Source: Candidatus Norongarragalinales archaeon (GTDB lineage Archaea > Micrarchaeota > Micrarchaeia > Norongarragalinales > DASYRB01). From it: 64,000 nucleotides of DNA. Position numbers and translations under genes: made by a program. Below are positions 38,567 through 64,000 of the stretch, in pieces. The notes under the pieces were generated by a model. That model had not been told where the DNA came from, ran no database searches, and worked only from the letters and a program-made list of their open reading frames with translations. The first letter of the stretch is position 1. Each line of letters starts with the position of its first letter. The stretch is taken from positions 4,938 to 68,937 of the forward strand of contig DASYRB010000026.1 in the NCBI GenBank assembly GCA_036004805.1, read 5' to 3'.

Positions 38567-38575
38567 TCTAAAAAC

Positions 38576-47842: not shown

Positions 47843-47952
47843 AGCCCCGTCGTCTAGAATGCAGTATCGAGAATTTTTGATGCTGTGTGGACTATGGACA
47901 AGGACGCCAGGCTTTGAACCTGAAAACGGCAGTTCGAATCTGCCCGGGGCTA
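47843..47952 (+). tRNA. tRNA-Gln (anticodon UUG) candidate with a roughly 35-nt non-canonical intron in the D-loop.
   Basis: Acceptor stem AGCCCCG (47843-49) / CGGGGCU (47945-51), discriminator A. These are the same acceptor-stem and discriminator bases as Methanocaldococcus tRNA-Gln, as I recall it. T-arm GGCAG-UUCGAAU-CUGCC (47928-44). Anticodon arm CCAGG-CUUUGAA-CCUGA (47907-23), U33/A37 flanking UUG. D-stem GUCU (47852-55) / GGAC (47902-05) encloses 46 nt instead of 8-11. An internal 7-bp hairpin cagtatc/gatgctg is a possible intron helix. Not run through tRNAscan. Confidence 0.55.
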
Positions 47953-48019
47953 TCCCGTTTAAATTACCCCTGCGACCCAATAATTTCACTAATTTCCACT
48001 CTAAAGGTGCATGATTTTT

Positions 48020-48241
48020 ATGGGAAGAACTAAAGGAGTCCACATTCACTCGACCGCCAAAGCGCTAGTCAAAAAAGCGCCACAAATCTTTGGCACTACT
48101 TTCGACAAGAACAAAGACTCCCTCCGCAAACTCGGTCTTTTGAAGGAAGGAAAGGAAGAACGCAACAAGCTAGCCGGCGAAGTCACCGTATTGATGAAGA
48201 AGAGACAGCGCGAAATCGAAGCCGAAGCCGCCCGCGGATAA
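48020..48241 (+). CDS. rps17e: 30S ribosomal protein S17e.
   Basis: MGRTKGVHIHSTAKALVKKAPQIFGTTFDKNKDSLRKLGLL aligns with the S17e consensus MGxIRTKxVKRxAxxIIEKYxxxFTxDFExNK. Confidence 0.8.
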   Translation: MGRTKGVHIHSTAKALVKKAPQIFGTTFDKNKDSLRKLGLLKEGKEERNKLAGEVTVLMKKRQREIEAEAARG

Positions 48242-48244
48242 GCC

Positions 48245-48628
48245 ATGAGAGTGGCGATCAATGCAGCGATCATTCACGATGGAAGAATTCTTTTAGTCCG
48301 GAAAAAACAGATTTGGATACTTCCCGGCGGGAAGCCTGAACCGAACGAATCGGATTTTGACAGTTTACGTAGGGAAGTAAGGGAAGAACTTTCTGGAACT
48401 GAATTGGAAAACTTCAGGTTTTACCGAGAATTCGAGGGAATAACCCCTCATAAACAAGATCTGCTAAAGGCAAGAGTTTATTTCGCGGACATAAGCGGGC
48501 AACTTGGCCGACCTTCTGGAGAAATCGATGACAGTGATTGGATTGCACACTTGGGTGAACAATCTCTTTCTAACATTACTTCCAAGATCGTGGATTCTCT
48601 TGCAAGAGACGGATATCTGCGACGCTGA
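48245..48628 (+). CDS. NUDIX hydrolase.
   Basis: Nudix box GGKPEPNESDFDSLRREVREELSG. 127 aa. Starts 4 nt after rps17e. Confidence 0.85.
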   Translation: MRVAINAAIIHDGRILLVRKKQIWILPGGKPEPNESDFDSLRREVREELSGTELENFRFYREFEGITPHKQDLLKARVYFADISGQLGRPSGEIDDSDWIAHLGEQSLSNITSKIVDSLARDGYLRR

Positions 48629-48661
48629 TTAGTATTGTCGCGCGCGGATAAAAAGTTCTTT

Positions 48662-49027
48662 TTAGCGTTTTAGTTTTCGCAGCAGGCTTATTGCCCTTTC
48701 CATTTTTCTACCGGCCATGAAGCCCTTTTCTTTTGCGAGTGCTTTTTCTAGTGCTGGCAACGCGCTTGGATCACCAATATCTCCTAGTGCGTGGGCTGCT
48801 ATCATGCGAACATACGTATCTTTGTGTCCGAGGGCTTGTGCTGCGTGAGGAACGGCGCTTGGACCGATTCTAACAAAAGCTTGTCCTGCTATCGTACGAA
48901 CCTCCGGGTCACGATCGCCTTCTAGTACTTGGCGAACAAATGCAGGATTGCGCATTTTTTGCAAATGCTTGGATATCACGCTAGGGTGCGCGGTTTTCAT
49001 GAATCTTTCGATTTTTGACATTTTCAA
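48662..49027 (-). CDS. HEAT-repeat (PBS-lyase-like) mini-protein. Paralog of 11890..12117.
   Basis: DPEVRTIAGQAFVRIG / DTYVRMIAAHALGDIGDPSALPAL HEAT-type repeats. Start overlaps the proS stop (ATGA-type overlap at 49024-49027). Confidence 0.6.
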   Translation of the reverse strand: MKMSKIERFMKTAHPSVISKHLQKMRNPAFVRQVLEGDRDPEVRTIAGQAFVRIGPSAVPHAAQALGHKDTYVRMIAAHALGDIGDPSALPALEKALAKEKGFMAGRKMERAISLLRKLKR

Positions 49028-50499
49028 TATTGCCTCGCTATGTAAACAGTCTGCTTAGCAGGCTTGCCACAAACAACACACTTCGCGTTTGATGAGGGTT
49101 TTTCGTTCATTCCAAAACGCGTTCCTCTGACTTTGCCGCCTTTCGTGAAGGTTTGCAGCTCTTCAGCACATTTTGCTCCATCATCGTCGGTTGAGTGGAA
49201 TGGCGCTCGAGCGACTCCCTTCTTTTCTAGAATTTTCAACACTTCTTGTTTCGTGTCGGCATCTTCGATGCGTTTCGAAAGGTCATTTTGCGTTTTTTCC
49301 TTCATCGAGTCAAGCATTTCCGCGGAGAGCTTTGTGAGTGCGCCGACGATTTGCGCCTGTGGAATGGTAAGGCGAGTTCCCGTGTCTCTGCGGGCGAGCG
49401 TGACGTTGTTTTCCTTGACTTCCTTCGCGCCAATCTCGACGCGCGCGGGCGTGCCGATCAACTCCCATTTGGAATACTTGTATCCTGGCGTCTTGTCGCT
49501 GTCGTCGAGCGCAGCACGGAAACCAGCGCGCTTCAATACCGCGAACAGGCTTTTGGCTGTGTCAAGAATTTTCGCGTTCTCCGGCGCTCCTGTCTTCATG
49601 ATCGGCACGATCACGACTTGAGTCGGCGCGATGCTCATGGGCCACAAGAGTCCCTTGTTGTCGCCGTGCACGCCGATGAGCGCGCCCATCATTCGCCAAG
49701 TGCCCGGACCGTAACACGTTTGCCATGCGAACTGGTCCTTTCCGTTTTCGTCTTGGAACTTGACGCCGAACGCTTTCGCGAATCGTTGTCCAAGCATGTG
49801 TGTCGTGGCGATTTGCAGCGCTTTGCCATCGGGAAGGATTACGTCTGCGCCGTAAGTGTCATCCGCTCCTGGAAACTTGTCCCACTGCGGCCTCTTGATT
49901 GCAAGAAGGGCAAGACCGAGCTGGTCTGTGAGGACTTTGTGTGTGATGGCCATGTCTTCCTCGATTTGTCGCGCAGCGTGATCTTTTGAATCAAAAACGT
50001 CGTGTGCTTCGATCCAACTGAATTCACGGCCGCGTAGGAACGGATTGGTTTCGCTTTCGTTGCGGTAAACGTTGCATGACTGGTAGAGCTTCAGGGGCAG
50101 TTGTGATTTGCTCTGTATCCATAGCGAGTACATCTGGTACATTGCCGTTTCGCTGGTTGGTCGCAGTGCTAAGCGTCGAGCGAGTTTTTCGTTGCCGGCG
50201 TGCGTGACCCAGAACACTTCCAGCTTGAAGCCTTGTGCGTGTTCTTTTTCTTTCTCAAAGTTTTCTTCTGGAATTACGACTGGAAACATTACTGGTGAGT
50301 GTCCTTTGTCTTCGAGTTCGCGTTCGATCATTTCCGTGACTTTGCGTAACGGGATGGCGGCGTTGGGTTTGTGGACGATGAAGCCTTGCACGTTGTAGCG
50401 GTTGTCGACGAGGTCGGCGGCGTAGAGGATGGTGTTGTACCATTCGCTGTAGTCCTTGTTTTTGTCTTTGTCGAACTCGCGTGAAGCCATCATTGCCAT
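49024..50499 (-). CDS. proS: Prolyl-tRNA synthetase, archaeal/eukaryotic type (class II).
   Basis: 491 aa. Class II motifs (FRGREFSWIEAHD). C-terminal zinc-binding CVVCGKPAKQTVYIARQY typical of archaeal-type ProRS. Confidence 0.9.
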   Translation of the reverse strand: MAMMASREFDKDKNKDYSEWYNTILYAADLVDNRYNVQGFIVHKPNAAIPLRKVTEMIERELEDKGHSPVMFPVVIPEENFEKEKEHAQGFKLEVFWVTHAGNEKLARRLALRPTSETAMYQMYSLWIQSKSQLPLKLYQSCNVYRNESETNPFLRGREFSWIEAHDVFDSKDHAARQIEEDMAITHKVLTDQLGLALLAIKRPQWDKFPGADDTYGADVILPDGKALQIATTHMLGQRFAKAFGVKFQDENGKDQFAWQTCYGPGTWRMMGALIGVHGDNKGLLWPMSIAPTQVVIVPIMKTGAPENAKILDTAKSLFAVLKRAGFRAALDDSDKTPGYKYSKWELIGTPARVEIGAKEVKENNVTLARRDTGTRLTIPQAQIVGALTKLSAEMLDSMKEKTQNDLSKRIEDADTKQEVLKILEKKGVARAPFHSTDDDGAKCAEELQTFTKGGKVRGTRFGMNEKPSSNAKCVVCGKPAKQTVYIARQY

Positions 50500-50556
50500 T
50501 AGTGTTGTTTTCAGCTCGTTGTCTTTAGGGAAATGTTAAGGTGTTTTGGTGGTTTT

Positions 50557-53500
50557 TTAGGCTGTGTCTTTCTCGTTTTTGCGTTTGCGTTTCTTTTTGC
50601 CCGGGAACAATGCGAGGATGAGTGCGTATCCTAGCGCGATAATTATAGTGATGATGAAAAGTGTTATTGTGAGCTCGCCGGCTGCGAGTTGCGTTTCTCC
50701 CGGCACGCATATTTCTTGTTCCTTGATGAGCGTGCGTTGCAGTCCTTTCCTCTCGAAGAATTTCGCGTTGTAGCATCCTGGCTTGAGGAGTTTGAGAGTG
50801 GCGCGGTACGTTTCGCCGCCGCCGAACACGTTCGCGTAGACGAGGGCGTTTTGTTTGTATATTTCGAACTCTCCCGAAGCCGCGGGGTCGAGTATCGTTA
50901 TCGTGAAGGTGACTTCGTCGCCTGGCTTGAGTTTTTCGGGTGCGTCGATGCAAACGAAGCTCGTTCCAGGCGCTGGGCTGATCGTGCGTGTGGATACGAG
51001 TGGCGAGCCTTCGAATGGTCCGTCGACGTGCGTGAGGATGCGCAGTGTAGTGTATGGGTCGATGGGCTTGATGAAGAACGTGACTGTGACTCGTTGTCCG
51101 GGTGGTATGGGTTGCACGGGTAGTGTTTGGCTGTTCATGGTGACGGTGATTCCTGTGAGGTATTCGTCGCCCGTGTTTTCCAGGAGTACGGGTATTGCGA
51201 AAGAGTCGCACGTGGTGAACGTGTTGGGCGCGAGCACTAGCATTGATAGGTGTGGTCCGGCGATCACGCTCGGCGGTTGTGGTGTGGTGGTCGGCGAGGG
51301 TTGTGGCGTTGGTGCGGGTTGTTTCTGCACTATCACGACCTGCACTTCTTCAGGCATGACTGTTGGCGTGGGTGTGGGGTATGGTGTGGGCGTGTATTGC
51401 GTGCCTGGTGGTCCTCCTCCTGGTTGTGGTTGTGCGGCTTGTCCGAGTGCCCAGCTTGAGAAGTTTGTAACCATGAATGTGTATTCTGGCGGGTTGAGGT
51501 TTGAGTAGGAAGGCGTGTAGATTGTTCCTGTGCTTAACACCAGCGCGCGGGACGTGGTGAATGTTGATAGCGTGTATACGTTGCCTGCAGTGAATGAAAG
51601 TGAGTAGAAGGTGATGTTGGTGGCGGTGTTGAAGAGCTCGTTCATGCTTGCATCAAGTGCAGCAATCCAAGCTCCTTGGAACAGGTTGGTAGAGTTGAGG
51701 AAGTTGTTGCTTGCGTTGTTGAGGTTTATGCTTGCGAATTGTACGGAGCCGTTTCCGGAGACGTAGTTTGTAAAGTTGGTCAGGTTTGAGTTGAGCACGT
51801 TGGTCGTGTTCATCACTGCGAGAGAGTCGATGATTTTCGTGTTCGAGATTGAAGCGTTTTTGATGGTTTTGAGGAATATGGCGATGTTCGTGGCGTTTCT
51901 GATCGTGTTGTTTTCGAGTGTTGTGCGGTTAGAGTTTTGTATGTTGATCGCGATGGTCGCGTTGGTGATGGTGTTGTTCGAGAAAGTGAAGTCTTGTTGC
52001 GTGTCTGTCCACAAGCCGCTGGCGCAGTTGTTCAGGTTGTTGTCGTGTATTTTTACTCGCGACATGGCTGGTCCGCTAGCAACTTCATTGCCTATGGAGA
52101 AGCAGTCGGTAAAGTTGGATAGTGTTATGTTGTTGTTGGCGACTTCTAGGTCTTGAAGAGTTACGGAATAGGCAAAAATGCCTATGCCCCAGGGCGAATA
52201 ACTGTTGCCGTAGTTGTTGTTGGGCCACTTGAATGGCAGTACGGTGTTGTTCGATATTGTCAAGTTTGTTAGAGTGCCGCTGCCCAAGTCTAGGAACTCG
52301 ATTCCGTACGTGCCGTACTCTGCAATGTTGTTTTGCACGGTGACGTTGCTCGCACTGTGCTCTAGTTGTATTGCGCCGCCAAGCCGGTCGTAACCAGTGT
52401 CGTTGATGTAGTTCGAAGTTACGTTCACGAGAGAGCTGCGCGTGACGAAGATGCCGTTACTCCAGCTATTGCGTATGGTGTTGTTATTGGCGGTCACGTT
52501 TTGGGTGCCGCGGACCTCGATGTTTGCAGTGTTTCCGGTAGTAGAGTTGAACATTGTCGAGTGCGCAATGACGGAGTTGTTCGTGCTGCTTAGATAGACT
52601 CTTCCTGAAGAGCTGAAGTTCGAGTTGTAAACATAGAGCCAGTTTGATTGCGTGGCGTTGATCGCCATGCTTGAAGAGTTGACAATACTTGCGCCAGTGA
52701 TTACGGTGTTGTTTGAGAGATAGACTTGTATCCCTTGATACGTGCCAGTAATGTTTGCATTGTTTACTGTTGTATAGTTCGATGAGTAGATGTAAATTCC
52801 ATAGTTAGTTTGGTTGCCGTTGCCGCGCACCATGTTGTTCGTGACTGTAGTGCCTATTGCGGTTTCGATGTCGATGCCCCAGTTGTCAGTCGAGCCAAAC
52901 GTAGTGATGTTGTTGTTCGTGGCGGTGTTGTTGTTTCCTGGAGTTCCAAAAATGGATATTCCGATGTTGAATACGGTCGTGCCGCGCGCAGTGATGTTGT
53001 TGTTGTTGACAGTGTTGTTGTTGCCCGTTACGAGCAGTCCGTAGTTGTTGTCCGTGCCGTTAGTGATTATTTGGTTTCCAGTTATCGTGTTGTTTGACGT
53101 GGAGGTTTTGAGTTCGATGCCTGTGTTGAAGTTGCCAGTTGCTCGAGAAATCGTGATGTTGTTTTGTGTGACTGTGTTGTTGTTGGAGTTGTCTTCGATT
53201 TTTACGCCGTCGTTGAGATTTACGCCATTGGTGGTGATGTTGTTTCCAATTATTGTGTTGTTGGAGTTGCGTGAGAAGAGAAAGATGCCGAAGTTGTTGT
53301 CGCCAGTTCCAGTGGCGATGATGGTGTTGTTTTCGATGCGATTTCTGCAAGAACCCCCGCTCAGAATTATTCCGTATGAGTCTGTCGAACCATTTGTGCG
53401 AATCGTGTTGTTGTAGATGTAAGAGTCGTTGGCATTGCTGAAGTTGATGCTGTTCGTAAACGCAAAGCTCGTAGAGTTTTTCGTGAATAGACAGTTCTTG

Positions 53501-53775
53501 ACTGTGATGTTGTTGAAGCCGGTGTTTCCTACTCCGAACTTGTTTGCTGCGCCGTATCCGTAAGTAATGTTCCAGCCTGCGCAGTCGATGACTATGTTGT
53601 TGGCATTTATCGTGAGACAGGTGCCACTGCTAACGATTGAAGTGTTGAGGAGGTACGTTTCGCTTGTAGAATTGAGCGTAGTGCAGTCTGTGACGTTTGT
53701 GTAAGCGTTCGCGTTGCTAGTGAGAAAGAGCAGGCCAGCTACTAGTATGATTGGGAATAGCGCGCTTCGTTTCAT
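50557..53775 (-). CDS. Giant secreted parallel-beta-helix surface glycoprotein (1072 aa) with PT linker, C-terminal Ig-like region, TM anchor and poly-basic tail.
   Basis: Signal peptide MKRSALFPIILVAGLLFLTSNANA. Dozens of beta-helix rungs rich in N-x-T (NNNTVTQNNITISRATGNFNTGIEL...). Linker YTPTPYPTPTPTV...PAPTPQPSPTTTPQPP. C-terminal LTITLFIITIIIALGYALILALFPGKKKRKRKN. Confidence 0.8.
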   Translation of the reverse strand: MKRSALFPIILVAGLLFLTSNANAYTNVTDCTTLNSTSETYLLNTSIVSSGTCLTINANNIVIDCAGWNITYGYGAANKFGVGNTGFNNITVKNCLFTKNSTSFAFTNSINFSNANDSYIYNNTIRTNGSTDSYGIILSGGSCRNRIENNTIIATGTGDNNFGIFLFSRNSNNTIIGNNITTNGVNLNDGVKIEDNSNNNTVTQNNITISRATGNFNTGIELKTSTSNNTITGNQIITNGTDNNYGLLVTGNNNTVNNNNITARGTTVFNIGISIFGTPGNNNTATNNNITTFGSTDNWGIDIETAIGTTVTNNMVRGNGNQTNYGIYIYSSNYTTVNNANITGTYQGIQVYLSNNTVITGASIVNSSSMAINATQSNWLYVYNSNFSSSGRVYLSSTNNSVIAHSTMFNSTTGNTANIEVRGTQNVTANNNTIRNSWSNGIFVTRSSLVNVTSNYINDTGYDRLGGAIQLEHSASNVTVQNNIAEYGTYGIEFLDLGSGTLTNLTISNNTVLPFKWPNNNYGNSYSPWGIGIFAYSVTLQDLEVANNNITLSNFTDCFSIGNEVASGPAMSRVKIHDNNLNNCASGLWTDTQQDFTFSNNTITNATIAINIQNSNRTTLENNTIRNATNIAIFLKTIKNASISNTKIIDSLAVMNTTNVLNSNLTNFTNYVSGNGSVQFASINLNNASNNFLNSTNLFQGAWIAALDASMNELFNTATNITFYSLSFTAGNVYTLSTFTTSRALVLSTGTIYTPSYSNLNPPEYTFMVTNFSSWALGQAAQPQPGGGPPGTQYTPTPYPTPTPTVMPEEVQVVIVQKQPAPTPQPSPTTTPQPPSVIAGPHLSMLVLAPNTFTTCDSFAIPVLLENTGDEYLTGITVTMNSQTLPVQPIPPGQRVTVTFFIKPIDPYTTLRILTHVDGPFEGSPLVSTRTISPAPGTSFVCIDAPEKLKPGDEVTFTITILDPAASGEFEIYKQNALVYANVFGGGETYRATLKLLKPGCYNAKFFERKGLQRTLIKEQEICVPGETQLAAGELTITLFIITIIIALGYALILALFPGKKKRKRKNEKDTA

Positions 53776-53859
53776 TAGCGCAAAAACTGCGTACTAGGAG
53801 CTTAAAAAACTGCAGAATACGGCGTAAAAAATGGGAAAACCAGAAAAAGAGGGGGAGTT

Positions 53860-55287
53860 TTAGTCTTTCTTCTTGCTGCGTAGCGCTTTGCGTTCGTCGG
53901 CGAGCTTGTCTTCGAGCGCTTCGCGTTGCGCTTCCAGCTCGGCGATCTTCGCTTTGCGCGCGTCCTTCGCGGCTTGCTTAGCGGCCTTCTCGTCGACTAC
54001 TGGCGCTTGCACTTCTACGGCTCCTTTGCGTGAGAGGTAGTACGCGCTGGCGATCGCGAGAATGATGGCGATGGCGAGTCCTGCGAGTAGTGGCGTGTTG
54101 CTTGCGGTGAAGAATCCTGCGAATCCGCTAGCGTTCCTGGTCGCGTTGCCGGTCGTGTTGCGCGTGCCGTTCGCTACGGGCAGTACGCCGCCGCGAGTGA
54201 ATATTTTCGTGACGGGCTGGTTTATTGCGCGTCCTGGGACGTCGAACTTGTACAGTCCTGCGGTTTCCGCTACGAAGCGCACTTGTCCCTGCTCGTCAGA
54301 CGGCAGTTGGAATACGCGGTCGTCTGGGAACTTGACGTTCAATCCTATTCCCTTGACTGGCTGTTTGGTTTGCGCGTCGACGATCGTGACCGTGATGAAG
54401 TCTCCTTGCGTGCCGCGTTCTGGCGCGCGGATCTCTACAGGGCTTCCTTGAGCGACGGGCGTTGGTGATGGTGCTGGTCCGCCTCCCGTGTTGCCTTCAG
54501 CGATGCAGATGTTGTTGCGGAAGTCGCAGTAGTATCCAGTGCCGCATACCGGATTGGCGTACAAACATCCTTGCGCGCTGCCACCAGGGCTGCCGCCTCC
54601 GCTTCCAGGGTTACCGCCGCTTCCAGGTGGTGAAGGCGTTGGCGTCGGTGAAGGAGTCGGCGTTGGGGTTGGCGAGGGCGTGACGCTAGCGTTGCTCGTG
54701 AGCGCGAAGTCGGCTTGCGTAGAGCTGCCGGCGACAATCACGACGCCGGTGCGCATTTGTGAATTGTATCCAGCAGCGCTTGCGGTAACTGTGAGCGTGC
54801 TTGGGTTCGGGCTGAACACGTAAGCTCCTGAAGCGTTCGTGAATCCGCTCGCTCCATTGCTCAATGCCACGAGTGCGCCACTGATCGGCGCGCCGCTGGT
54901 CGCGTTGGTAACGACGCCCCACAACACTGCCGGAGCAGGGTTGGGTTGCATCGTGAAGTTGAAGTATGCAGGGTTGAAGTTGAACACTGAGGTGTTCGTG
55001 ACTTGTCTCTGCGTGTCGTTCGTGTAGTCGTAGACGTGCGTGAAGTAAGACGCGTTTGTGAAAGTAATCGTGTAGTTTCCATCGGCAAGCCCGGTGGCGT
55101 TGAAGAATCCGCTCGCGTTGCTCGTGGTGTTGAACAATGCGCCGGTGCCGCTGTTTTGGAATACGACGTTCGCGACGATTCCTTGCGCGTTGTTGCTGTC
55201 GACGACGTATCCGCTCCATGATCCAGCATCCGCTAGAGGAGCGAGCGCGAAGAGCGCGACGAAAACTGCGAGGATTTTTTGATTCAT
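53860..55287 (-). CDS. Secreted surface protein: CarbopepD_reg-like domains, PT/Gly linker, small Cys-rich module, Ig-like domain, TM anchor and charged coiled C-tail.
   Basis: Signal MNQKILAVFVALFALAPLADA. TPSPTPTPTPSPTPTPSPPGSGG linker. CLYANPVCGTGYYCDFRNNIC. C-terminal LLAGLAIAIILAIASAYYL then KAAKQAAKDARKAKIAELE... Confidence 0.75.
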   Translation of the reverse strand: MNQKILAVFVALFALAPLADAGSWSGYVVDSNNAQGIVANVVFQNSGTGALFNTTSNASGFFNATGLADGNYTITFTNASYFTHVYDYTNDTQRQVTNTSVFNFNPAYFNFTMQPNPAPAVLWGVVTNATSGAPISGALVALSNGASGFTNASGAYVFSPNPSTLTVTASAAGYNSQMRTGVVIVAGSSTQADFALTSNASVTPSPTPTPTPSPTPTPSPPGSGGNPGSGGGSPGGSAQGCLYANPVCGTGYYCDFRNNICIAEGNTGGGPAPSPTPVAQGSPVEIRAPERGTQGDFITVTIVDAQTKQPVKGIGLNVKFPDDRVFQLPSDEQGQVRFVAETAGLYKFDVPGRAINQPVTKIFTRGGVLPVANGTRNTTGNATRNASGFAGFFTASNTPLLAGLAIAIILAIASAYYLSRKGAVEVQAPVVDEKAAKQAAKDARKAKIAELEAQREALEDKLADERKALRSKKKD

Positions 55288-55305
55288 TTTGAGTGTGACA
55301 CCGTT

Positions 55306-58300
55306 TTACATGCCGAAGTTTACGATCGTGACTTGTCCCGCTTGGAGCAAGTTGTTGTAGATGCTCACGCTGCCGTAACCCGTCGCGGTGGCGGTCAAGT
55401 TGTACGTGCCTGGTGCGAGGTCGTTGAGCCAGTAGACTCCGCTTCCGTTCGTGGTGTTGCTGGCGATGAGCGTGCCGCTTTGGAACGCTTGCACGAGCGC
55501 GCCGCTGAGCATCGTGCCGTTTACCGCGTCAATCACGGTTCCAGAGAACGCGCCGGCGCGTCCGAGCGCGAAGTTCAGCATCAAAGATTGGTTCGCGTTA
55601 ATGACGATTGGCGATGCGGTTTGCGTGACGTATCCCGCGTTGCTCGCGCTTACGCTGTAAGTTCCTGCAGGAAGCGTGATGTTGTAGAATCCGCTCGCGT
55701 TAGTGAGCGCGCTGTAATTGTATCCAACGATCTGTACGAGCGCGCCGTTGAGCGGTCCGCCCGAGCTGTTCGTTACGAATCCGTAAAGGTTTCCAGTGGC
55801 GTTGCTCGCTGGAGCGCCGACGGTAATGTTGAATGAAGTCGCGTTGCTGGCTCCCAGCGCGTCAGTGACAATCATGGTTGCGGTGTAGACTCCCGTCGCG
55901 GTGTAAGCGTGCGTAACGACCGCGTTCGTGGTCAAGCTGGTCGTGTTGGTCGCGTCGCCGTAGAACCATTGGTATGAAAGTGGCGTGTTGTTGTCAGGGT
56001 CGTACGAGGCGCTCGCGTTGAGCGTCACTATTTGTCCAACTACTGGCGTGTAGTTGTCCGCGGTCGCGTAAGCGACTGGCGGAATGTTGCTGACGTTCGC
56101 GCTTGCGCTCGTGTTGACCGTAAAGGTAACAGTGTCAGTGCCAACGTTTCCTGCAGCGTCGCTCGCGAAAGCGTTCAACGTGTAGGTTCCATTAGATGGA
56201 ACAGTAATGTTCGTGATTCCTGCGAAAGTCTGGTTCGTGCCGTTCCAGTTGAACCACGTGCTCGTAACCGCGACGTTGTCGGTCGCGAAAATGTCTACCG
56301 GGATCGTGGTGACGTTGTATGTCGCGTTCAACGGGCTGAGAATGATCACGGTAGGTGCGACGGTGTCGATGAAAGGCGTGCTCACGTTGATGAGCAGAGT
56401 CGTGCTGTTGCTGGCGGTGCCGTTGTCCGTAACGGTGAGCGTTGCGGTGTACAATCCACCGATGCTGTAAGAGTGGTTCGCAGTTACTCCCGTAGCGTTG
56501 CTGGCGTCGCCGAAGTCCCAGAAGTAACTCACGATGAAGCCGTCAGGGTCGTAAGACGCGCTAGCATTGAAAGTAATGAGTTGTCCGGTGACGGGCGTGC
56601 TGTTGTCGACGCTCGCGTAAGCAACCGGAGGCACGTTTACCGTCGCGTTGCTGAGCACGGTGAAAGTTACTGGAGCTGCGGTTCCGACGTTTCCGCTCGT
56701 GTCGTTCGCCCAGGCGTTGATAGTGTAAGTGCCCGGTCCTGGAACGACGAAGCTGGTCGGTCCGACGAATGACAAGTTTCCACCAAGAACGTTGTACCAG
56801 ACGCTAGCGACCGCGACGTTGTCGACCGCGTTGATGTCAACAGGAATCGTGGTCGTGTTGTAAGTAATGTTCATTGGCTGAACGATCGTGACGTTGGGCG
56901 CGATCGTGTCGTTCGTGGGCGTGGTGACGTTGATGAAAGTGGTGTTGCTCAATCCGCTGTAGAAACCGTTCAAGTTTCCAGTGCCCGCGGCGGTAGCGTT
57001 GAACAAGCAGTCATAATTGTATGAAGCTCCCGTGAAGACGCAAGCGTAGAAACCGATCGCGTTCGTTAGCACCATTCCCGGCGTGCTCGTGAAAGTGAGC
57101 GGGTTGCCTGCAGCGTCGAAAACGTTCCAGCGAATCAAGCTGTTCAAAGTTCCAACTGTAGTGTTGAGCAATACTGGGTTGACGGTCAAGAGCGCGGGTC
57201 CGCCGAGCGCGACAGTAACACCAGTCGTGTTCGTAAAGCTTCCAGAAACTGCAGTGATGGTCGCGTTTCCGATAGTGTTCGCGGTAAAGTTGGTGTTCTG
57301 CGTGTTTTGTGCAGGAACAAAGTTTCCGAGAGTTGGAGCGATGGTCCAGTTGGCGTTGACAGCGACGGCAGTGCCGTTCGTGTCGTAACCAGTGACAGTG
57401 TATTGCGTGACGCTGTTGTTGAGCACGACCAAGTTCTTCGGCGTGATGTCGATGTATGAAAGTGGGAATGCAGTGACCGTGACGGTAGCGTTTGCGCTTA
57501 GAGATCCCGCGTTAGCGACTAGCGTAGTCGTTCCAGGCGCGAGTGCAGTGAACAATCCACCGCTCGAAACAACTCCAACGGTCGTGTTGACGACGCTCCA
57601 TGCAGGAATCACGACGACAGGGTTGTTGTATTGGTCGAACGCGATAACGTTGAATTGGTAGTTTCCGCCGAGAGGCAAAGTCGCGACGCTCGGCACGACG
57701 TACATTTGCGTCGCAGCTCCCGGAAGCACTTGAATCACAGTAGTGTTCGTTACGGTTCCGCTCGTTGCGGTGATCGTAGCGTTTCCGGCGAGCGTGCTGT
57801 TGAAAATGGTGCTCGCGATTCCGCCGACAGTGTTGGCAGAGAGCGGGTTGACGATTCCAATGCTCGTGCTGAACGAGACGAGGGTTCCGTCAACGACCGG
57901 GTTGTTGAGAATGTCGAAAACGTTGGCGTCGACGCGCGCGCTCTGTCCCGCAGTGATCGTGGTCGCGTTCGGATAAAGGTAAAGCGTGTATGGGCTGCCG
58001 AGAGTGCCGTTAGCGACGTTCAAGAAAGTGCTCCCGTTAACGGTCAAATAGCTCGCTTGGATCGTGGCGGTTCCAGGATTGCCTGCGGTAGCGAGTCCAG
58101 CCGGCGAAGTGATGGTTGCGATGCTCGGGTTGCTCGTGCTCCACGCAGGGTTGTAAATCGGGAACAAGTATCCGCCAGCGTCGCGACCGATCGCAGTGTA
58201 TTGAATAGTGTCGTTTTGGTAAACAGTAAGGTTCGCAGGAACTACTTGAACGCTGACGAGCTGGCGAGGCGCAACGAGTGGCGTGTGAGATTGTCCACCG

Positions 58301-59397
58301 TATCCAGTTCCACCGTCTCCACCGTAATCACCGTCGAGCTCGCAATACCAGTAAGTGTCGTGCGGTCCGCCTTGTCCACCGCTTCCACCAAGTCCCCAGA
58401 CCGCTCCAGAGACCTGTGAAGTGACTGCATAGATGCTGGTTTGTCCCGCGTTTCCACCGTTTCCACCAGTGCCACCGTGCGCGTCGCAACCCTTCGCGGC
58501 CTGACCGTTTCCACCAACGCCACCATTAGCGAAGATAGAACCGGTGAGCACGAAGTCGTTCGACAAGAAGTTCAAGTTTTGCGCGTTTCCACCATTTCCA
58601 CCCCACGTTCCGTAAGCAGGGCTGTAAGGGTGGTCGACCGCGCCGTTCCATCCATTCCATGATGGTTGTCCGGCGTCGCCGTTAGCGTCAATGTTTCCAT
58701 AAATATAGATGTGGTTCGCGAAAACGTTCAACGTTCCGCTGCGCACGTAAAGAGTCGTGCCGGCAGGAATCACGAAAGTGTCATAATAGAAAGATCCACC
58801 GTAAACCGTCTGCGTCGAAACCGTGCACGTGCCGTTCGCTCCGTTATTGCAGTTCGTTCCTTGCAACGCGCCTGCCGGAATCGCGCCCGTCGGAGGCTGC
58901 ATCGGTCCAGCATATCCGCCATTGTTTCCAGAAACGTTCGCGTTACCAAGCCCAGGGAAAGACGCGTCGGGAGTAGGCTCGTCCGAAGCCAATTGCTGCA
59001 CTAGTTGAACAGGTGCTGGCGTAGCGCTTGGCTGTGGAATCACTTGCGGCAACTGAATGAAAGAAGGCTTCGCTTTCACGATGCCGATTTGAGCCTGAAC
59101 CGTCACCTGAGGCAGTGTTTTGACGCTCGGGTCGGTAGCTACTATATTAGAAAGAACAGGAGAAACCGCGGCGTGAACGCCGCCGATATTCGCAACAGCG
59201 AATGGGCTGTCAGAAGCATCAGAAACGCCAATAGTTGGTTGAAGTGGCTTGAAGGCGTACGCGCTTGCGATTGGAGAAATCGCGATAGCTACGAAGGCAA
59301 GGATCGCGATGCCGAAAATCGCGTAAGAGGTTTGTTTATTCAATTTTGTTGAAATCACAAAAAGCGCAGAAAGCCCCACGGTTCCCACCGGGACCAA
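55306..59397 (-). CDS. Giant adhesin-like protein (1363 aa): N-terminal TM, Gly-rich repeat region, Big_2-like and PKD domains, C-terminal CarbopepD_reg-like domains.
   Basis: PKD signatures (YFWDFGDASNATGVTANHSYSIGGLYTATLTVTD, YQWFYGDATNTTSL...YTATGVYTATMIVTD). Gly-rich GGVGGNGQAAKGCDAHGGTGGNGGNAGQ. C-terminal LNGALVQIVGYNYSALTNASGFYNITLPAGTYSVSASNAGY. Confidence 0.8.
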   Translation of the reverse strand: MVPVGTVGLSALFVISTKLNKQTSYAIFGIAILAFVAIAISPIASAYAFKPLQPTIGVSDASDSPFAVANIGGVHAAVSPVLSNIVATDPSVKTLPQVTVQAQIGIVKAKPSFIQLPQVIPQPSATPAPVQLVQQLASDEPTPDASFPGLGNANVSGNNGGYAGPMQPPTGAIPAGALQGTNCNNGANGTCTVSTQTVYGGSFYYDTFVIPAGTTLYVRSGTLNVFANHIYIYGNIDANGDAGQPSWNGWNGAVDHPYSPAYGTWGGNGGNAQNLNFLSNDFVLTGSIFANGGVGGNGQAAKGCDAHGGTGGNGGNAGQTSIYAVTSQVSGAVWGLGGSGGQGGPHDTYWYCELDGDYGGDGGTGYGGQSHTPLVAPRQLVSVQVVPANLTVYQNDTIQYTAIGRDAGGYLFPIYNPAWSTSNPSIATITSPAGLATAGNPGTATIQASYLTVNGSTFLNVANGTLGSPYTLYLYPNATTITAGQSARVDANVFDILNNPVVDGTLVSFSTSIGIVNPLSANTVGGIASTIFNSTLAGNATITATSGTVTNTTVIQVLPGAATQMYVVPSVATLPLGGNYQFNVIAFDQYNNPVVVIPAWSVVNTTVGVVSSGGLFTALAPGTTTLVANAGSLSANATVTVTAFPLSYIDITPKNLVVLNNSVTQYTVTGYDTNGTAVAVNANWTIAPTLGNFVPAQNTQNTNFTANTIGNATITAVSGSFTNTTGVTVALGGPALLTVNPVLLNTTVGTLNSLIRWNVFDAAGNPLTFTSTPGMVLTNAIGFYACVFTGASYNYDCLFNATAAGTGNLNGFYSGLSNTTFINVTTPTNDTIAPNVTIVQPMNITYNTTTIPVDINAVDNVAVASVWYNVLGGNLSFVGPTSFVVPGPGTYTINAWANDTSGNVGTAAPVTFTVLSNATVNVPPVAYASVDNSTPVTGQLITFNASASYDPDGFIVSYFWDFGDASNATGVTANHSYSIGGLYTATLTVTDNGTASNSTTLLINVSTPFIDTVAPTVIILSPLNATYNVTTIPVDIFATDNVAVTSTWFNWNGTNQTFAGITNITVPSNGTYTLNAFASDAAGNVGTDTVTFTVNTSASANVSNIPPVAYATADNYTPVVGQIVTLNASASYDPDNNTPLSYQWFYGDATNTTSLTTNAVVTHAYTATGVYTATMIVTDALGASNATSFNITVGAPASNATGNLYGFVTNSSGGPLNGALVQIVGYNYSALTNASGFYNITLPAGTYSVSASNAGYVTQTASPIVINANQSLMLNFALGRAGAFSGTVIDAVNGTMLSGALVQAFQSGTLIASNTTNGSGVYWLNDLAPGTYNLTATATGYGSVSIYNNLLQAGQVTIVNFGM

Positions 59398-59474
59398 CCA
59401 CGCTGATACAATTAGTTATCTAATCAGCCAAAACACCTATATAAGCCTTTTCCCCACTGGCCAGTAGTTACAAA

Positions 59475-60575
59475 CTAACTGGCTGATGGTGGTGGTCCGT
59501 AAGTACGTCTTAATGCCTTGAAAGCGTTCTTGAGACCGAAGTGGTGAATCATTGTCGGATAGGCAGCTCTGCCACCAATGCCGAGCTCTTGCAAATGACG
59601 AGCGACGATGAAGGGATCAGTTCCAACGGCCTTCAGTTTCTGTGTTATTTCGTCTGCGGCCTTCATCTGTAATTCGCGCGTTTCGATACCACGCGCTTTT
59701 CGAAGCTCCTCGAAAACTTGCTCCATCGGAACGAGCGCGCCAGTCCTTCTTGCAAAAATGATGTGGTGCAGAGGCGCTCTTGATTTGTAGAGAATCTCGC
59801 GTGATTCAGGAAGCGAAAAAAGTGACTGCCGAGAACGCATCACCTTGTAAGTCGCGATCGCATGAATGGGCGAAACGCTGCCATTCAGCTCGTGAGTGAA
59901 AAACTTTTCAGCCGCGGATTTCGATTGTTTAACTCGAGAAAGTCTTTGCCGCAAATCTCTCTCGAACGCGATGCGCACCATGTTCGGCGCGTGGCTGGGA
60001 TCGATTCCGAGGTGTTGCAATAGCGAATACTTGTTTCTTTCCGGAATCTCTTTGCGACTCAAAACGTGCATGAGCTGTTCTTTGAGCGAGGGAAAAGCGG
60101 GTTGCGCGAACGCGAAAAAAGCGGTCTGCGTCGCGGGATCACCGTCTTTCGCGAGTGTTTCTACGAGGGCGGTTTTTCGGATCTCGTTCTTTTCGCTCCT
60201 CGGCATGCCGCGATAGCGTTCATCGAACCAGGAGTGAATGTGTTCGGCATTCGCATTGCGAACAAAGTCCTTGAGAGAGCGCGAGGCTTTTCGGAACGCG
60301 GTTCTCGTCTTCTGGTTTTTAACGCGTTCTTCGATCTCTCTTCGAAGCGCTCTGGCTCTGGGTTTCGTTCTCTGCCTTGGCACGAGAGAGAAAATGCTTT
60401 TGGAAAGCTTTAAATTGCGACGGTCAGGCAATCTGTTCAACACACACGGGTGATGCTTAGAAAAATGGCTCGAGAAGAATTCAGAAATCCGTTCAGGAAA
60501 GCGAAAAACGTCATCGCAGGCGTATTCGCAGGAAGCGCGGCCCTTGCGGCACTCGGCGCTGCCCACAAAGTTCAC
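59475..60575 (-). CDS. Hypothetical basic protein (up to 366 aa, start uncertain), possible helix-hairpin-helix element.
   Basis: No catalytic motif recognised. LQELGIGGRAAYPTMIHHFG is HhH-like. The 5' 125 nt overlap the divergent 60450 gene, so the real start is probably downstream of 60575 (first internal ATG at about 60203). Confidence 0.4.
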   Translation of the reverse strand: MNFVGSAECRKGRASCEYACDDVFRFPERISEFFSSHFSKHHPCVLNRLPDRRNLKLSKSIFSLVPRQRTKPRARALRREIEERVKNQKTRTAFRKASRSLKDFVRNANAEHIHSWFDERYRGMPRSEKNEIRKTALVETLAKDGDPATQTAFFAFAQPAFPSLKEQLMHVLSRKEIPERNKYSLLQHLGIDPSHAPNMVRIAFERDLRQRLSRVKQSKSAAEKFFTHELNGSVSPIHAIATYKVMRSRQSLFSLPESREILYKSRAPLHHIIFARRTGALVPMEQVFEELRKARGIETRELQMKAADEITQKLKAVGTDPFIVARHLQELGIGGRAAYPTMIHHFGLKNAFKALRRTYGPPPSAS

Positions 60576-61820
60576 GCTAACATCAACCCCAACGAGCTCT
60601 CCAGACTACCCAACCCTGGAGAAGGAATCCACGGACCAAGCATCACCGACGCCGGACAAACCTCACTCGCTCTACAGGCAAACACGAGCGGCTACATGGG
60701 AACCATCCACTTCACGGCGGGCGGCAACAAACGCGGCTTCGGACTATTGTTCCACGACGCGATGCGCCTCTACATGCTCGAAAACACTCCTCAAGGCGGC
60801 AAAGTGCACGAAGTAAGCAACTTCCTCGGCCTCACCACATCGACGCACGCGTTCGGACTGCGACCAATGCTCGGCGCAACCGTCGGCGTAGTAAGGGACG
60901 CTCAAGGAAAACTCAAGCCAGACAACCTCGGACACATCGGCATTTCATACAAAGACCCAGAAAAAGGATTCCCGATCGCCAGCGCCGAAGCAGTGCTCGG
61001 AGGCTCGAAGGGTGTTAAGGACTTCAACGCTTACCTAGCCCTCGGAAACGCCGTGAACGCCACGGAGTTCTTCGCGAACAGGAAGGAAGTGCTCGCACGC
61101 ATCCACCGCGGACTCACGCTCGACGGCAGCGTCTACGCAGGCGCAGGATTCAGGCCCGGCGTCATCATCAGCGGCAAGCCAGCACAAGGATTCTTCGAAC
61201 TCGGAGGCCTTTGGAAGAAGCTCGGCTTCGGCGTGCGTCTAACCGCCGGCAGCAAGTCACGTGGACCCGACGTCTCACTCGCACTCACAGTCAAGCCCTG
61301 GGTAGGACCGCTAGCCACTCAAGAACAGCTCCTGGAAGAACGCGACTTCATCCACGGACTCTACAAAGCCGCTTCCGGCGTCCAACGCGCTCGACTGACC
61401 GCGCTCAAGAGCATCGCCAAGGAACAAATACCCGGACACCTGACGAGACTGCAAGAAATCCAAGACTCGCTCATCGCACAAGCCGCAATCCTGAACACGG
61501 GACAAGCGACCTCAGCGGATCGCGACAAGTACGTCGACCTCAAACAAAAATACAAACTGGTAGTCACTGAAGCCAATGACACGCTGCAACAAGGACTCTC
61601 GCAACTGCCTCTCGGCGAAAGACTCGAAATTCCGAGACTCCGCAAGAGACTCAACGAGCTCGAAAAGTCACTGCCGCCAATGTCGCGACTGCCGGAAAGC
61701 TTCCCAGAAAACGTCAACGACGAACTCGGAGACCTCCTGAGACGCGCGGCCACGCTGCAAAAGAGCCTTGACGGCTTCAAGAAAGCCATCGACGAACTGC
61801 CCGCACCAAAGAAAGACTAA
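60450..61820 (+). CDS. Secreted hypothetical protein with a beta-rich amphipathic central region and a C-terminal coiled coil.
   Basis: Signal/anchor VIAGVFAGSAALAALGAAHKVHA. Alternating-hydrophobic beta-strand-like segments (GFGLLF, HIGISY, GVRLTAGS, VSLALTVKPW). C-terminal 150 aa helical. Confidence 0.5.
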   Translation: MMLRKMAREEFRNPFRKAKNVIAGVFAGSAALAALGAAHKVHANINPNELSRLPNPGEGIHGPSITDAGQTSLALQANTSGYMGTIHFTAGGNKRGFGLLFHDAMRLYMLENTPQGGKVHEVSNFLGLTTSTHAFGLRPMLGATVGVVRDAQGKLKPDNLGHIGISYKDPEKGFPIASAEAVLGGSKGVKDFNAYLALGNAVNATEFFANRKEVLARIHRGLTLDGSVYAGAGFRPGVIISGKPAQGFFELGGLWKKLGFGVRLTAGSKSRGPDVSLALTVKPWVGPLATQEQLLEERDFIHGLYKAASGVQRARLTALKSIAKEQIPGHLTRLQEIQDSLIAQAAILNTGQATSADRDKYVDLKQKYKLVVTEANDTLQQGLSQLPLGERLEIPRLRKRLNELEKSLPPMSRLPESFPENVNDELGDLLRRAATLQKSLDGFKKAIDELPAPKKD

Positions 61821-61844: not shown

Positions 61845-64000
61845 TTAGTCCTTCGAGAAGCGCGCCTTAACTCCCTTGCTTTCTAATTCTGCCGAAGCTT
61901 CAAAATCTCCCTTCAATGGTGCGATTCTTGCCAAGGAGGCGCCGACTTCTTGTTCGAGCTCTTTCAACTTCTTCTCGAACAAGCCGCGGTCAGCCTTTAC
62001 CATTTCGAGAGTTAGGGTTATTTTGTCGTGAACGTTGAGACCGTTCTTCTTGCGTGATTCTTGCACGGCGCGCACGAGCTCGCGGAACAACGCGACGTTC
62101 ATCATTTCCTCATCCAGCTTGCGAGGCACCAACACTACGCCTCCATCGAGTTCTTTCTTCAGCCAGTCGCCAGGAATTTTCTGCTTCGAAGGCACGAACT
62201 CGACACTCTCGCAATTCAGCGAGCGCTGCAGCACCGACTGCAAGTCTTTTACGACGGGCGCGAACTGTTCTCCCGTAATGAGCACTTTCTTCAAAGGCCA
62301 TCGCAGTTTCAAGTTCGCTTCCTGCCTCGCGCTGCCGACCGCTTCCGTCAACGCGCGGGCGAGCTTCATTTCTTGTTCTAGCTTTTCTTTCATCCGCTTC
62401 TTTTCCGGCTCGGGCCATGTTTCGAAATGCACGCTCTCCTCATCTTTCGCGCTGCGCATTTTTTGGAAAACGTATTCGCTCATGAACGGCGTGACCGGCG
62501 CGAGCATTTTCAGTATCTCGAAAAGCGCGTGACGCATCGTCGCGAGCACCGCTTTCTTGCTCGACGCATCTCCCGAGAGAGAAGCGCGGTCGCGGATGAG
62601 CTTGATGTACCATCTCGAAAAGTCGTCGGTCACGAACTCGAGCATCTCACGTCCGGCCATGTGGAACTCGAAGTTTTCCAGGTGCGCGGTCGCGCTTTGT
62701 TTGACGTGCTGAAGGCGAGAAAGCAGCCACTCGTCCTCGACCTCGAGCTTGACTTTCGATAGTTCGGGAGCGGTTTCTTTGTACGTCTGGTAGAACGCGA
62801 ATGTGTTGTAAAGGATCGTGAGCGCGCGCTGCACTTCCTGCGCCGTCTTGAAACTGAATTTTTGTACTTCCCAAGGCGCGACTTCCCAACAGTAATACGC
62901 GCGAACCGCGTCGGCGCTCGCTGAATCGATGGATTGGTCGGCGTCGACGATGTTGCCGAGGCTCTTGCTCATTTTTTCTCCCTTCTCGTCCAACACCCAG
63001 CCCATGAGCGACACGGCTTTGTATGAAGAGTGTCCGAACGCGCCCACGCCGCAAAGCAGTAGGGAGTCGAACCAGCCTCGCACTTGGTCTTGCGACTCGC
63101 AAATCATGTCGCAGGGCTTCATTTCTTCGAACAATTCCTTGTTAGTATTTGGATAGCCCATGCTGGCCCAGGGCGCGATGCCGCTGTCGAACCATACGGT
63201 GAAAATGTGTGGCACGCGCTTCATCGCGCTGTCGCACTTGCTGCATTTGAGCTCGATCTTGTCGACCGTGTGCCTGTGCAGGTCTTGCAGTGACTTTTCG
63301 TCGAGTTTTTTGATCGATTTTTCTTTGAGTTCTTTGCGGCTGCCGATGACGGTCTTGTTGTCGCATTTCGTGCATTCCCATATCGGCATCGGGATTCCCC
63401 AGTAGCGTTGTTGTGACAGTCCCCAGTCTTCACGGTCGGCGATCCAGTTCTGCATCTTTACTTTTCCGAACGAGGGCAGCCATCTCGTTTTCTCGTTCTC
63501 TTCCATCATTTTTTCCTTGATGGGGTCGACTTTCATGAACCACTGTTTCGAAACGCGGAAAATGAGCGGCGTCTTGCATCTCCAACAGACCGCGGCGCGG
63601 TGCACGAACGTGCTCGCGTTCAACACCTTGCCTTCTTTTTCTAATATTTCGAGGACGAGCTTGTTCGCTTCGTCAGTGGATTTGCCTTCGAGTTCGCCGG
63701 CTTCCTGCGTGTAGCGGCCTTTCTCGTTCACGGGCGAGAGAATGGGCATGTTGTAGTGTTTGCCGAAAAAGTTGTCCGTTTGTCCGTGGCCGGGCGCGAC
63801 GTGCACGAGGCCGCTTCCTGCGTCCATCGTGACGAAGTGTTCGTATTCTTCGCTCTCAGCGAGCGATTGTTTCTCGCCGCTAGCGCTGCCCGGTTTTTCA
63901 CTCTCGCTTTTCATGACGTGTTTCTTGTACTTCTTGTTCGTCATGATCACGATGCTTGCGTAGACCTTGTGCGCTTTGCCGTTCTTCGCCGCTTCTTTTT
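61845..64000 (-). CDS. ileS: Isoleucyl-tRNA synthetase (class I), C-terminal about 715 aa. Partial: N-terminus beyond window end.
   Basis: KMSKSLGN motif. DREDWGLSQQRYWGIPMPIW (compare DWCISRQRYWG). GSGLVHVAPGHGQTD. Track start at 63950 is a GTG, and the frame remains open through 64000. Confidence 0.8.
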   Translation of the reverse strand, partial: KEAAKNGKAHKVYASIVIMTNKKYKKHVMKSESEKPGSASGEKQSLAESEEYEHFVTMDAGSGLVHVAPGHGQTDNFFGKHYNMPILSPVNEKGRYTQEAGELEGKSTDEANKLVLEILEKEGKVLNASTFVHRAAVCWRCKTPLIFRVSKQWFMKVDPIKEKMMEENEKTRWLPSFGKVKMQNWIADREDWGLSQQRYWGIPMPIWECTKCDNKTVIGSRKELKEKSIKKLDEKSLQDLHRHTVDKIELKCSKCDSAMKRVPHIFTVWFDSGIAPWASMGYPNTNKELFEEMKPCDMICESQDQVRGWFDSLLLCGVGAFGHSSYKAVSLMGWVLDEKGEKMSKSLGNIVDADQSIDSASADAVRAYYCWEVAPWEVQKFSFKTAQEVQRALTILYNTFAFYQTYKETAPELSKVKLEVEDEWLLSRLQHVKQSATAHLENFEFHMAGREMLEFVTDDFSRWYIKLIRDRASLSGDASSKKAVLATMRHALFEILKMLAPVTPFMSEYVFQKMRSAKDEESVHFETWPEPEKKRMKEKLEQEMKLARALTEAVGSARQEANLKLRWPLKKVLITGEQFAPVVKDLQSVLQRSLNCESVEFVPSKQKIPGDWLKKELDGGVVLVPRKLDEEMMNVALFRELVRAVQESRKKNGLNVHDKITLTLEMVKADRGLFEKKLKELEQEVGASLARIAPLKGDFEASAELESKGVKARFSKD

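Follow-up and report, generated by a model that had tools for sequence, protein, structure and literature searches.

Do the three long surface-protein genes that lie side by side in a Candidatus Norongarragalinales archaeon form an accessory island for attachment to a host, or are they a stable part of the cell envelope? DPANN archaea spend an unusual share of their tiny genomes on large surface proteins, which are prime candidates for host contact, and to our knowledge almost none of these proteins have been characterized. The genes in question occupy positions 50557-59397 of the stretch of DNA analysed here (64,000 nucleotides (nt) in length, referred to as the window in the following) and encode proteins of 1363, 475 and 1072 amino acids (aa), which we call the giant, the 475-aa protein and the 1072-aa protein. 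A first-pass annotation had attributed the DNA to a DPANN archaeon and the genes to an accessory, hypervariable island. The former holds: the organism carries the NCBI name Candidatus Norongarragalinales (Micrarchaeota), and the closest prolyl-tRNA synthetases (ProRS) in GTDB and in JGI metagenomes are those of Micrarchaeota, at 57-59% full-length identity. The latter does not, as the first two genes and the synthetase genes that frame the locus are kept in two other lineages and codon usage is ordinary. We conclude that the three genes probably encode exported and, by prediction, heavily N-glycosylated surface proteins of a vertically inherited envelope, not of an accessory island.

All three open reading frames (ORFs) are co-directional, as annotated, and the domains assigned to them were recovered by Pfam in each protein. 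Two details had to be revised. The genes do not lie downstream of proS, as they are encoded on the minus strand and the order of transcription is giant, 475-aa protein, 1072-aa protein and then proS; and a protein of 475 residues can hardly be called a giant. Together with the flanking synthetase genes, the locus is arranged as follows:

61845..64000, minus strand: ileS (isoleucyl-tRNA synthetase; Pfam tRNA-synt_1, Anticodon_1), the upstream frame gene
55306..59397, minus strand: giant surface protein gene (ORF; 1363 aa from TTG)
53860..55287, minus strand: 475-aa protein gene (ORF)
50557..53775, minus strand: 1072-aa beta-helix protein gene (ORF)
49024..50499, minus strand: proS (prolyl-tRNA synthetase; Pfam tRNA-synt_2b, HGTP_anticodon, ProRS-C_1), the downstream frame gene

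The intergenic gaps measure 18 nt (giant to 475-aa gene), 84 nt (475-aa to 1072-aa gene) and 57 nt (1072-aa gene to proS). The start of the giant gene is uncertain, with candidates at 59397 (TTG, 1363 aa), 59388 (JGI, 1360 aa) and 59343 (NCBI, 1345 aa). The ileS gene is represented by the C-terminal ~700 aa of its product only; it has no stop up to the window end and runs off the window. The window itself comes from JGI contig Ga0376048_0000093 (107 kb, sample 3300036860). A second JGI sample has the same genes in other parts of the window, and the Logan contigs of two further sequencing runs match it at 100% identity over the stretches that they cover. One of these contigs, L002, seemed to record a deletion of the giant gene, with a 322-aa gene directly before the 475-aa gene. 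We rejected this candidate because the contig is 100% identical to window positions 47926-56276, and the '322 aa' are a C-terminal fragment cut by the contig end.

Evidence for a stable locus comes from relatives. The Norongarragalinales lineage of the window is poorly sampled. Scans seeded with ProRS returned 63 loci from GTDB genomes and 80 from JGI metagenomes, and tblastn of the three proteins and 17 flanking proteins against these loci yielded essentially nothing. The syntenic relatives were not among them; they surfaced through homologues of a glycine-rich domain of the giant and of the 475-aa protein:

L151 (GCA_026396285.1): ileS, a hypothetical gene (minus strand), 489 aa (glycine-rich and immunoglobulin-like (Ig) domains), 1351 aa (Ig, two PKD, two CarboxypepD_reg), 607 aa (CarboxypepD_reg, transmembrane (TM) segment), a hypothetical gene (minus strand), proS, S17e (minus strand), a 585-aa beta-helix gene and, further on, HSP20 and PCMT
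L152 (GCA_049969435.1): same species as L153; the contig ends soon after the pair
L153 (GCA_049972335.1): ileS, two small ORFs, a 2158-aa giant, a 714-aa anchor, 518 aa, 1735 aa, a cupredoxin-like protein of 125 aa, proS
L154 (GCA_900174565.1): a relative of L151; the contig ends within the anchor gene

The four loci, from three genome assemblies and one further assembled contig, stand for two lineages. In each of them, ileS is followed by one or two small ORFs, by a giant with glycine-rich, Ig and CarboxypepD_reg domains (and PKD domains in L151 and L154), and by a CarboxypepD_reg protein with a TM segment or a partial copy of it; proS is reached in L151 and L153. The gap between giant and anchor gene is 26 nt in L151, 1 nt in both L152 and L153, and 7 nt in L154. 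In BLASTP comparisons, the ileS, proS, S17e, HSP20, PCMT, giant and anchor genes are orthologous to those of the window, and the isoleucyl-tRNA synthetase (IleRS), encoded at the same relative position, is 46-55% identical. With the number of its domains, the length of the giant varies among the lineages (1360 aa in the window, about 1840 and 2158 aa in the others). In the relatives, the giants are equipped with a signal peptide alone; their complete partners (L151, L153) combine a signal peptide with a C-terminal TM segment and a charged tail. In L154 the contig ends before the partner is complete, and L152 has a shorter version without a TM segment. The more closely related L151 and L154 share 76% identity in IleRS, 62% in the giant and 65% in the anchor, from which it follows that giant and anchor are retained orthologues that change faster than housekeeping genes do. 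Since the pair is found at the same place in distant relatives, we regard it as a stable part of the cell envelope and not as a variable island. Conservation and synteny across such relatives had been named beforehand as an argument against an accessory role; we observe both in the frame and in the first two genes, while the slot of the third gene is variable. Likewise, codon usage and third-position GC content (GC3) are not atypical, and we rejected a foreign origin of the three genes: their synonymous-codon distance (0.146-0.172) lies within the range of the other window genes (0.086-0.26), with a GC3 of 0.64-0.67.

Some further observations concern this region. Between ileS and the giant (59475-61820), the window has a 322-aa ORF (minus strand) and a 456-aa ORF (plus strand), both without a Pfam family; the small ORFs at this place in L151-L154 are unrelated to them. 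At L151 4349-9974, the giant is split into the 489-aa ORF (signal peptide, glycine-rich domain, first Ig domain) and the 1351-aa ORF, which could be real, a frameshift or an assembly error.

How is the conserved pair built? In the giant, Pfam recognizes two PKD_4 domains (117.5 bits vs a gathering score of 27), two CarboxypepD_reg domains (102 vs 32.3 bits) and, marginally, Big_2 (24.8 vs 22.8 bits). In a Kyte-Doolittle scan, its only hydrophobic segment is N-terminal and the C-terminus has no membrane anchor. Read from the NCBI start at 59343, the N-terminus consists of MNKQTSY, the hydrophobic core and SAYA, a classical Sec signal, and a low-complexity stretch of ~120 aa rich in P, Q and V separates it from the glycine-rich domain. 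From the N- to the C-terminus, the following parts can be distinguished:

59251..59334, minus strand: signal-peptide hydrophobic core (AIFGIAILAFVAIAISPIASAYA; Kyte-Doolittle scan)
58258..58887, minus strand: glycine-rich beta-solenoid domain, 210 aa, with conserved Cys/His motifs (homologue alignment, AlphaFold2 (AF2) model)
56878..58257, minus strand: Big_2-like Ig domain array, the putative stalk (Pfam Big_2, three stretches in a sub-sequence scan)
55798..56877, minus strand: tandem [Ig (OmpL47-type) + PKD] modules, ~180 aa each (Pfam PKD_4, two matches; NCBIfam OmpL47-type, two matches)
55309..55797, minus strand: C-terminal CarboxypepD_reg beta-sandwich pair (Pfam)

The Ig array finds its best homology in bacterial Big_2 proteins and in the L151 and L154 orthologues (40% over 318-338 aa). 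A self-BLAST of the giant for internal repeats returned nothing, although direct pairwise comparison revealed a duplication of the [Ig + PKD] module, with 56% identity between the two copies (E 7e-58). Between the C-terminal CarboxypepD_reg pair and its counterpart at the N-terminus of the 475-aa protein, identity is 32-36%. The 90%-identity cluster of the giant comprises just two sequences, one of them the 1345-aa form from NCBI.

The glycine-rich domain is the sole part of the giant without a known family, with no Pfam match even at E<=10. An exhaustive HMMER search of 1.84 billion representatives yielded five other clusters of homologues, three of which (P0233, P0234 and P0235) are the N-termini of the orthologous giants in L151, L152/L153 and L154. 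A match to P0232, a 4014-aa repeat protein (8e-46), was judged a repeat or low-complexity match to residues 14-61, and P0232 was discarded as a homologue. The alignment retains the motifs CxxGxxC, CDxHGG and HDTxWxCxxDG, and AF2, run with this small alignment, folds the domain into the strands of a beta-solenoid (predicted local distance difference test (pLDDT) 80.8, predicted TM-score (pTM) 0.76). A fold search with the model gave no significant match in the PDB; it weakly resembles viral glycine-rich or collagen-like fibre proteins (TM-score <=0.48). The novelty of this domain is modest, and its distribution is restricted to the lineage.

The 475-aa protein complements the giant in topology. 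It has a signal peptide (residues 4-23) and a TM segment (394-419) by hydropathy, in a type-I arrangement, and two CarboxypepD_reg domains (88.3 vs 32.3 bits in Pfam), after which come a TP/Gly linker and a four-Cys knot. The AF2 single-sequence model has a mean pLDDT of 48 and is usable for residues 280-360 and the helices, where it delineates these parts:

54193..54447, minus strand: membrane-proximal Ig-like beta-sandwich (AF2 single-sequence model, pLDDT 74-90)
54031-54108, minus strand: TM helix (hydropathy; AF2 helix 398-421)
53863-54030, minus strand: 56-residue charged helical cytoplasmic tail (AF2 helix 433-474, pLDDT 82-89)

Similar charged tails are found in the 607-aa protein of L151 (L151_607) and the 714-aa protein of L153 (L153_714). 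The Ig-like sandwich is 38% identical to residues 557-623 of a 722-aa beta-helix protein encoded elsewhere in the window and shows weak fold matches to alpha2-macroglobulin MG domains; the PDB fold search with the model produced generic Ig-like matches only (E>=0.012). A homologue search with the 475-aa protein gave seven weak matches at the level of domains and did not return the query's own sequence. We propose that this protein is the anchor partner of the giant.

The 1072-aa protein is of a more widespread kind. It consists of a signal peptide, a beta-helix of ~750 residues, a TP linker, two beta-rich domains, a TM segment (1028-1060) and a tail with the motif KKKRKRK, again in type-I topology. 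Pfam finds Beta_helix (PF13229) in five stretches (91.3 bits vs a cut-off of 25.9) together with NosD-like repeats, and does not recognize the C-terminal Ig-like pair. As a member of the NosD copper-maturation family (TIGR04247) the protein fails, with 13.6 bits vs the curated 300, and the Pfam NosD match is explained by shared beta-helix repeats only. We found 116 homologues, nearly all of them with Beta_helix and most of them beta-helix proteins of 860-1870 aa, of which the named ones belong to Woese-, Pace-, Nano-, Aenigm- and Micrarchaeota. Other proteins match it at 26-43% identity only, in alignments that span 7-50% of the length; no close orthologue was found outside this population. 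The 722-aa beta-helix protein of the window (26914-29082) is a mosaic paralogue, with an N-terminal portion of 350 aa that is 29% identical to the 1072-aa protein, the same combination of signal peptide and C-terminal TM segment, and 47 sequons per 1000 residues. In function, the 1072-aa protein probably binds, or possibly cleaves, glycans.

All three proteins are dense in N-x-S/T sequons, as had been claimed, and we compared their counts with 300 composition-preserving shuffles per protein. The 1072-aa protein has 53 sequons (49 per 1000; shuffled 32.2+-4.6), the 475-aa protein 15 (32 per 1000; shuffled 5.2+-2.0) and the giant, in its 1360-aa form, 60 (44 per 1000; shuffled 26.7+-4.3), corresponding to z-scores of 4.5, 5.0 and 7.7, respectively. 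The enrichment is therefore not a mere effect of a composition rich in Asn, Ser and Thr. In nearly all other window proteins the density is 0-12 sequons per 1000; the two exceptions have 16 and 19. The signal or anchor sequences reported for all three proteins take the form of Sec-type signal peptides in three of three and C-terminal TM segments in two of three, and the TP-rich linkers were seen again in the 1072- and 475-aa proteins. No archaeosortase sorting signal (PGF-CTERM and related) was found among NCBIfam CTERM models at E<=0.1 in the three proteins; the C-termini of the 475- and 1072-aa proteins are plain TM segments with a charged or basic tail. Taken together, topology, composition, domains and sequons lend the annotated cell-envelope role good support in silico.

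From these features we derive the following model. The giant and the 475-aa protein would be made from one transcript, as a bicistronic unit, and the latter would form the membrane-anchored base of a two-part surface fibre. The anchorless giant may dock on this base through the homologous CarboxypepD_reg pairs at its own C-terminus and at the N-terminus of the anchor, and would project a stalk of Ig-like and PKD domains outward, tipped by the glycine-rich beta-solenoid, which disulfides may stabilize. The 1072-aa protein, in turn, belongs to the membrane-tethered pectin-lyase-fold glycoproteins found across DPANN archaea, probably as a glycan-binding and possibly as a glycan-cleaving one, and it appears to be transcribed separately; its ligand may be a host cell, a mineral, a polymer or a subunit next to it. 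Candidate transcription signals were read from the sequence by eye, a sigma-70 promoter scanner being unsuitable for an archaeal organism:

59438..59444, minus strand: TATA-like TTATATA, with a purine-rich stretch before it, upstream of the giant gene (read by eye, putative)
53823..53850, minus strand: oligo-T runs past the 475-aa gene, a possible archaeal terminator (read by eye, putative)
53802..53808, minus strand: TATA-like TTTTTAA, 27-33 nt before the ATG of the 1072-aa gene (read by eye, putative)

The last of these could be the gene's own promoter, with a leaderless mRNA. Going further, and only tentatively, the pair might be a Micrarchaeota-specific, vertically inherited fibre module that serves as the main contact structure or as an alternative S-layer (surface layer) of the putatively free-living Norongarragalinales.

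Several points weigh against our view of the locus and of its products. The third slot is variable, with a beta-helix gene in the window and unrelated ORFs in L153, and in L151 the beta-helix gene is displaced beyond S17e, so that the position of the third gene is not kept. Furthermore, the locus is not next to proS in L004-L009, the Micrarchaeota with the closest ProRS in GTDB (57-58%), and its conservation is thus restricted to a lineage. As to the model, we infer the complex of giant and 475-aa protein from adjacency, complementary topology and shared domains only, and the promoter and terminator assignments from visual reading only.

The variable slot is also one of the observations that would suit an accessory, strain-variable adhesion island for the attachment of an episymbiotic DPANN archaeon to its host, a reading that we consider unlikely. 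The organism does belong to the DPANN archaea, and Ig, PKD and beta-helix architectures are those proposed for DPANN host interaction. Furthermore, divergence is faster in the surface proteins than in the synthetases on either side (29-40% identity over single domains vs 46-55% for IleRS), and the collections searched hold no relative above ~60% ProRS identity, such that strain-level variation is hardly sampled. What variation could be seen speaks against this reading, as the overlapping contigs from other runs are identical and the 90%-identity cluster of the 1072-aa protein contains no variant, and so do the frame and gene pair shared with two other lineages and the ordinary codon usage. Finally, the metabolic repertoire of the order Norongarragalinales has led to the proposal that it depends little on hosts or is even free-living (PMC12892359), which lowers the prior for a dedicated role in host adhesion.

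That the giant and its 475-aa neighbour make up the S-layer proper, with a lattice-forming canopy and its membrane stalk as in SlaA/SlaB, is likewise improbable. An anchorless large glycoprotein is indeed encoded directly upstream of a smaller TM-anchored protein, the pair is kept in relatives, it is acidic in composition, with few charged residues and much Thr and Asn, and the same reasoning has nominated SlaA- and SlaB-like proteins in Nanobdella. Yet the one experimentally supported S-layer protein of Micrarchaeota, Micr_00292, has domains of the PF05123/TIGR01564 type and homologues in 38 of 49 Micrarchaeota genomes, while no large protein of the window matches such models, and an elongated Ig array with a solenoid tip is more fibre-like than a lattice unit. 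Least probable is that the 1072-aa protein is chiefly an enzyme, a polysaccharide lyase or hydrolase that is tethered to the surface and acts on glycans of a host or of the environment, and not structural or adhesive: pectate lyases and GH28 enzymes have the fold of a right-handed parallel beta-helix, Pect-lyase_RHGA_epim is matched weakly (E 0.0067) and the idea has been advanced for the pectin-lyase-like proteins of Nanobdella, but this match falls under the curated cut-off (16.7 vs 27 bits), no catalytic family is matched in Pfam or NCBIfam, and glycans at the sequons along the helix would hide much of its surface.

The estimate that 27% of the window encodes giant surface proteins is arithmetically right, as six large surface-type genes add up to 17,692 nt, or 27.6% of 64,000. 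They include the tandem paralogues at 1-6798, of 1398 aa (2602-6798, minus strand) and 1280 aa (running off the window start), which have an N-terminal TM segment only and CarboxypepD_reg domains. Their sequons are not enriched (20 vs 15.5+-3.7 shuffled), and they differ in class from the three proteins described here. AglB is not encoded within the 64-kb window. Four glycosyltransferase genes (three GT4, one GT2) lie 10-16 kb from the three genes and adjoin a gene for a DUF2070 membrane protein (40424-42235):

34597-35802: glycosyltransferase, GT4
35807-36859: glycosyltransferase, GT4
37364-38566: glycosyltransferase, GT2
39228-40415: glycosyltransferase, GT4

It is plausible that this cluster (34597-40415) supplies the glycans for the sequon-rich surface proteins. 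The 747-aa protein at 32344-34587, without a Pfam match, is an SMC-like coiled-coil protein (NCBIfam SMC_prok_B, 2.2e-9) and not a surface protein; it also matches an archaea-specific SMC-related protein in NCBIfam (5e-6), and a canonical SMC is encoded at 15295-18750. The sole RNA gene detected in the window is tRNA-Gln(TTG) at 47881-47952.

Two observations were made at proS in other genomes. In L153 (18831-26057), the beta-helix slot holds the genes for the 518-aa protein, for the 1735-aa protein (signal peptide, no Pfam domain, few sequons) and for the 125-aa cupredoxin-like protein. In L040 (1-9839; Micrarchaeia metagenome-assembled genome SO_2017_LW4_162), three sequon-rich ORFs of 2163+, 566 and 534 aa (30-51 sequons per 1000) adjoin proS in divergent orientation. 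They have no BLAST-detectable similarity to the three proteins of the window and may reflect an independent association of surface genes with proS.

What we describe is an envelope module kept in position in a clade for which a nearly free-living lifestyle has been proposed, and this weakens the assumption that giant Ig, PKD and beta-helix proteins of DPANN archaea are host-attachment factors. The pair of giant and anchor and the glycine-rich solenoid domain offer themselves as targets for structural work.

In comparison with known systems, the 1072-aa protein resembles the pectin-lyase-like proteins MJ1_0451, MJ1_0701 and MJ1_0776 of Nanobdella aerobiophila MJ1, which are of similar size (908-1320 aa), likewise combine a parallel beta-helix with Ig-like domains, and carry 36-52 predicted N-glycosylation sites, compared to its 53 sequons. 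It differs from these and other DPANN beta-helix proteins in its C-terminal Ig-like pair, which escapes recognition by Pfam. The giant and the 475-aa protein, for their part, share with SlaA and SlaB of the Sulfolobales the combination of a large anchorless glycoprotein and a smaller partner with signal peptide, beta-sandwich domains and C-terminal TM segment, and a pair of the same layout has been nominated in Nanobdella (SlaA-like MJ1_0160, SlaB-like MJ1_0707). The adjacency typical of SlaA/SlaB is present here, with incomplete partners in L152 and L154, and the putative fibre-on-anchor layout may be functionally analogous to the canopy and stalk. No sequence relationship to SlaA/SlaB was detected, however, and the helical segment of the 475-aa protein is cytoplasmic in the AF2 model, in contrast to the extracellular coiled-coil stalk of SlaB.

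Closer in phylogeny is SLP_Mh (Micr_00292) of Micrarchaeum harzensis, a heavily glycosylated protein of ~100 kDa from the same phylum with an N-terminal signal or anchor. Its S-layer domains (PF05123 S_layer_N, TIGR01564, TIGR01567) are absent from the three proteins of the window at E<=0.01 in Pfam and E<=0.1 in NCBIfam. The surface-layer proteins of 'ARMAN' Mia14 and Methanosarcina mazei, for which a role in cell-cell interaction has been proposed, draw on the same promiscuous extracellular modules (PKD, beta-helix, CARDB, beta-propeller) and likewise occupy a large share of the genome; those of Mia14 are described as strain-specific and horizontally acquired, whereas the core pair of the window is kept in position across lineages. 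Bacterial Ig-array adhesins with Big_2 or Big_1 domains (invasin/intimin-like; 'YjdB', 'adhesin/invasin') are 26-32% identical to the Ig array of the giant, and JGI annotates one of its orthologues as adhesin/invasin. The giant differs from them in its archaeal context, in lacking any outer-membrane beta-barrel or autotransporter part, and in having a unique glycine-rich domain on the N-terminal side and CarboxypepD_reg domains at the C-terminus. The three proteins are thus ordinary DPANN surface glycoproteins of a familiar kind, for which NCBI already has entries with generic domain names ('right-handed parallel beta-helix repeat-containing protein' and 'PKD domain-containing protein', both from Candidatus Norongarragalinales archaeon); what is new is that a gene pair is conserved in a clade about which little is known, together with the lineage-restricted glycine-rich solenoid domain.

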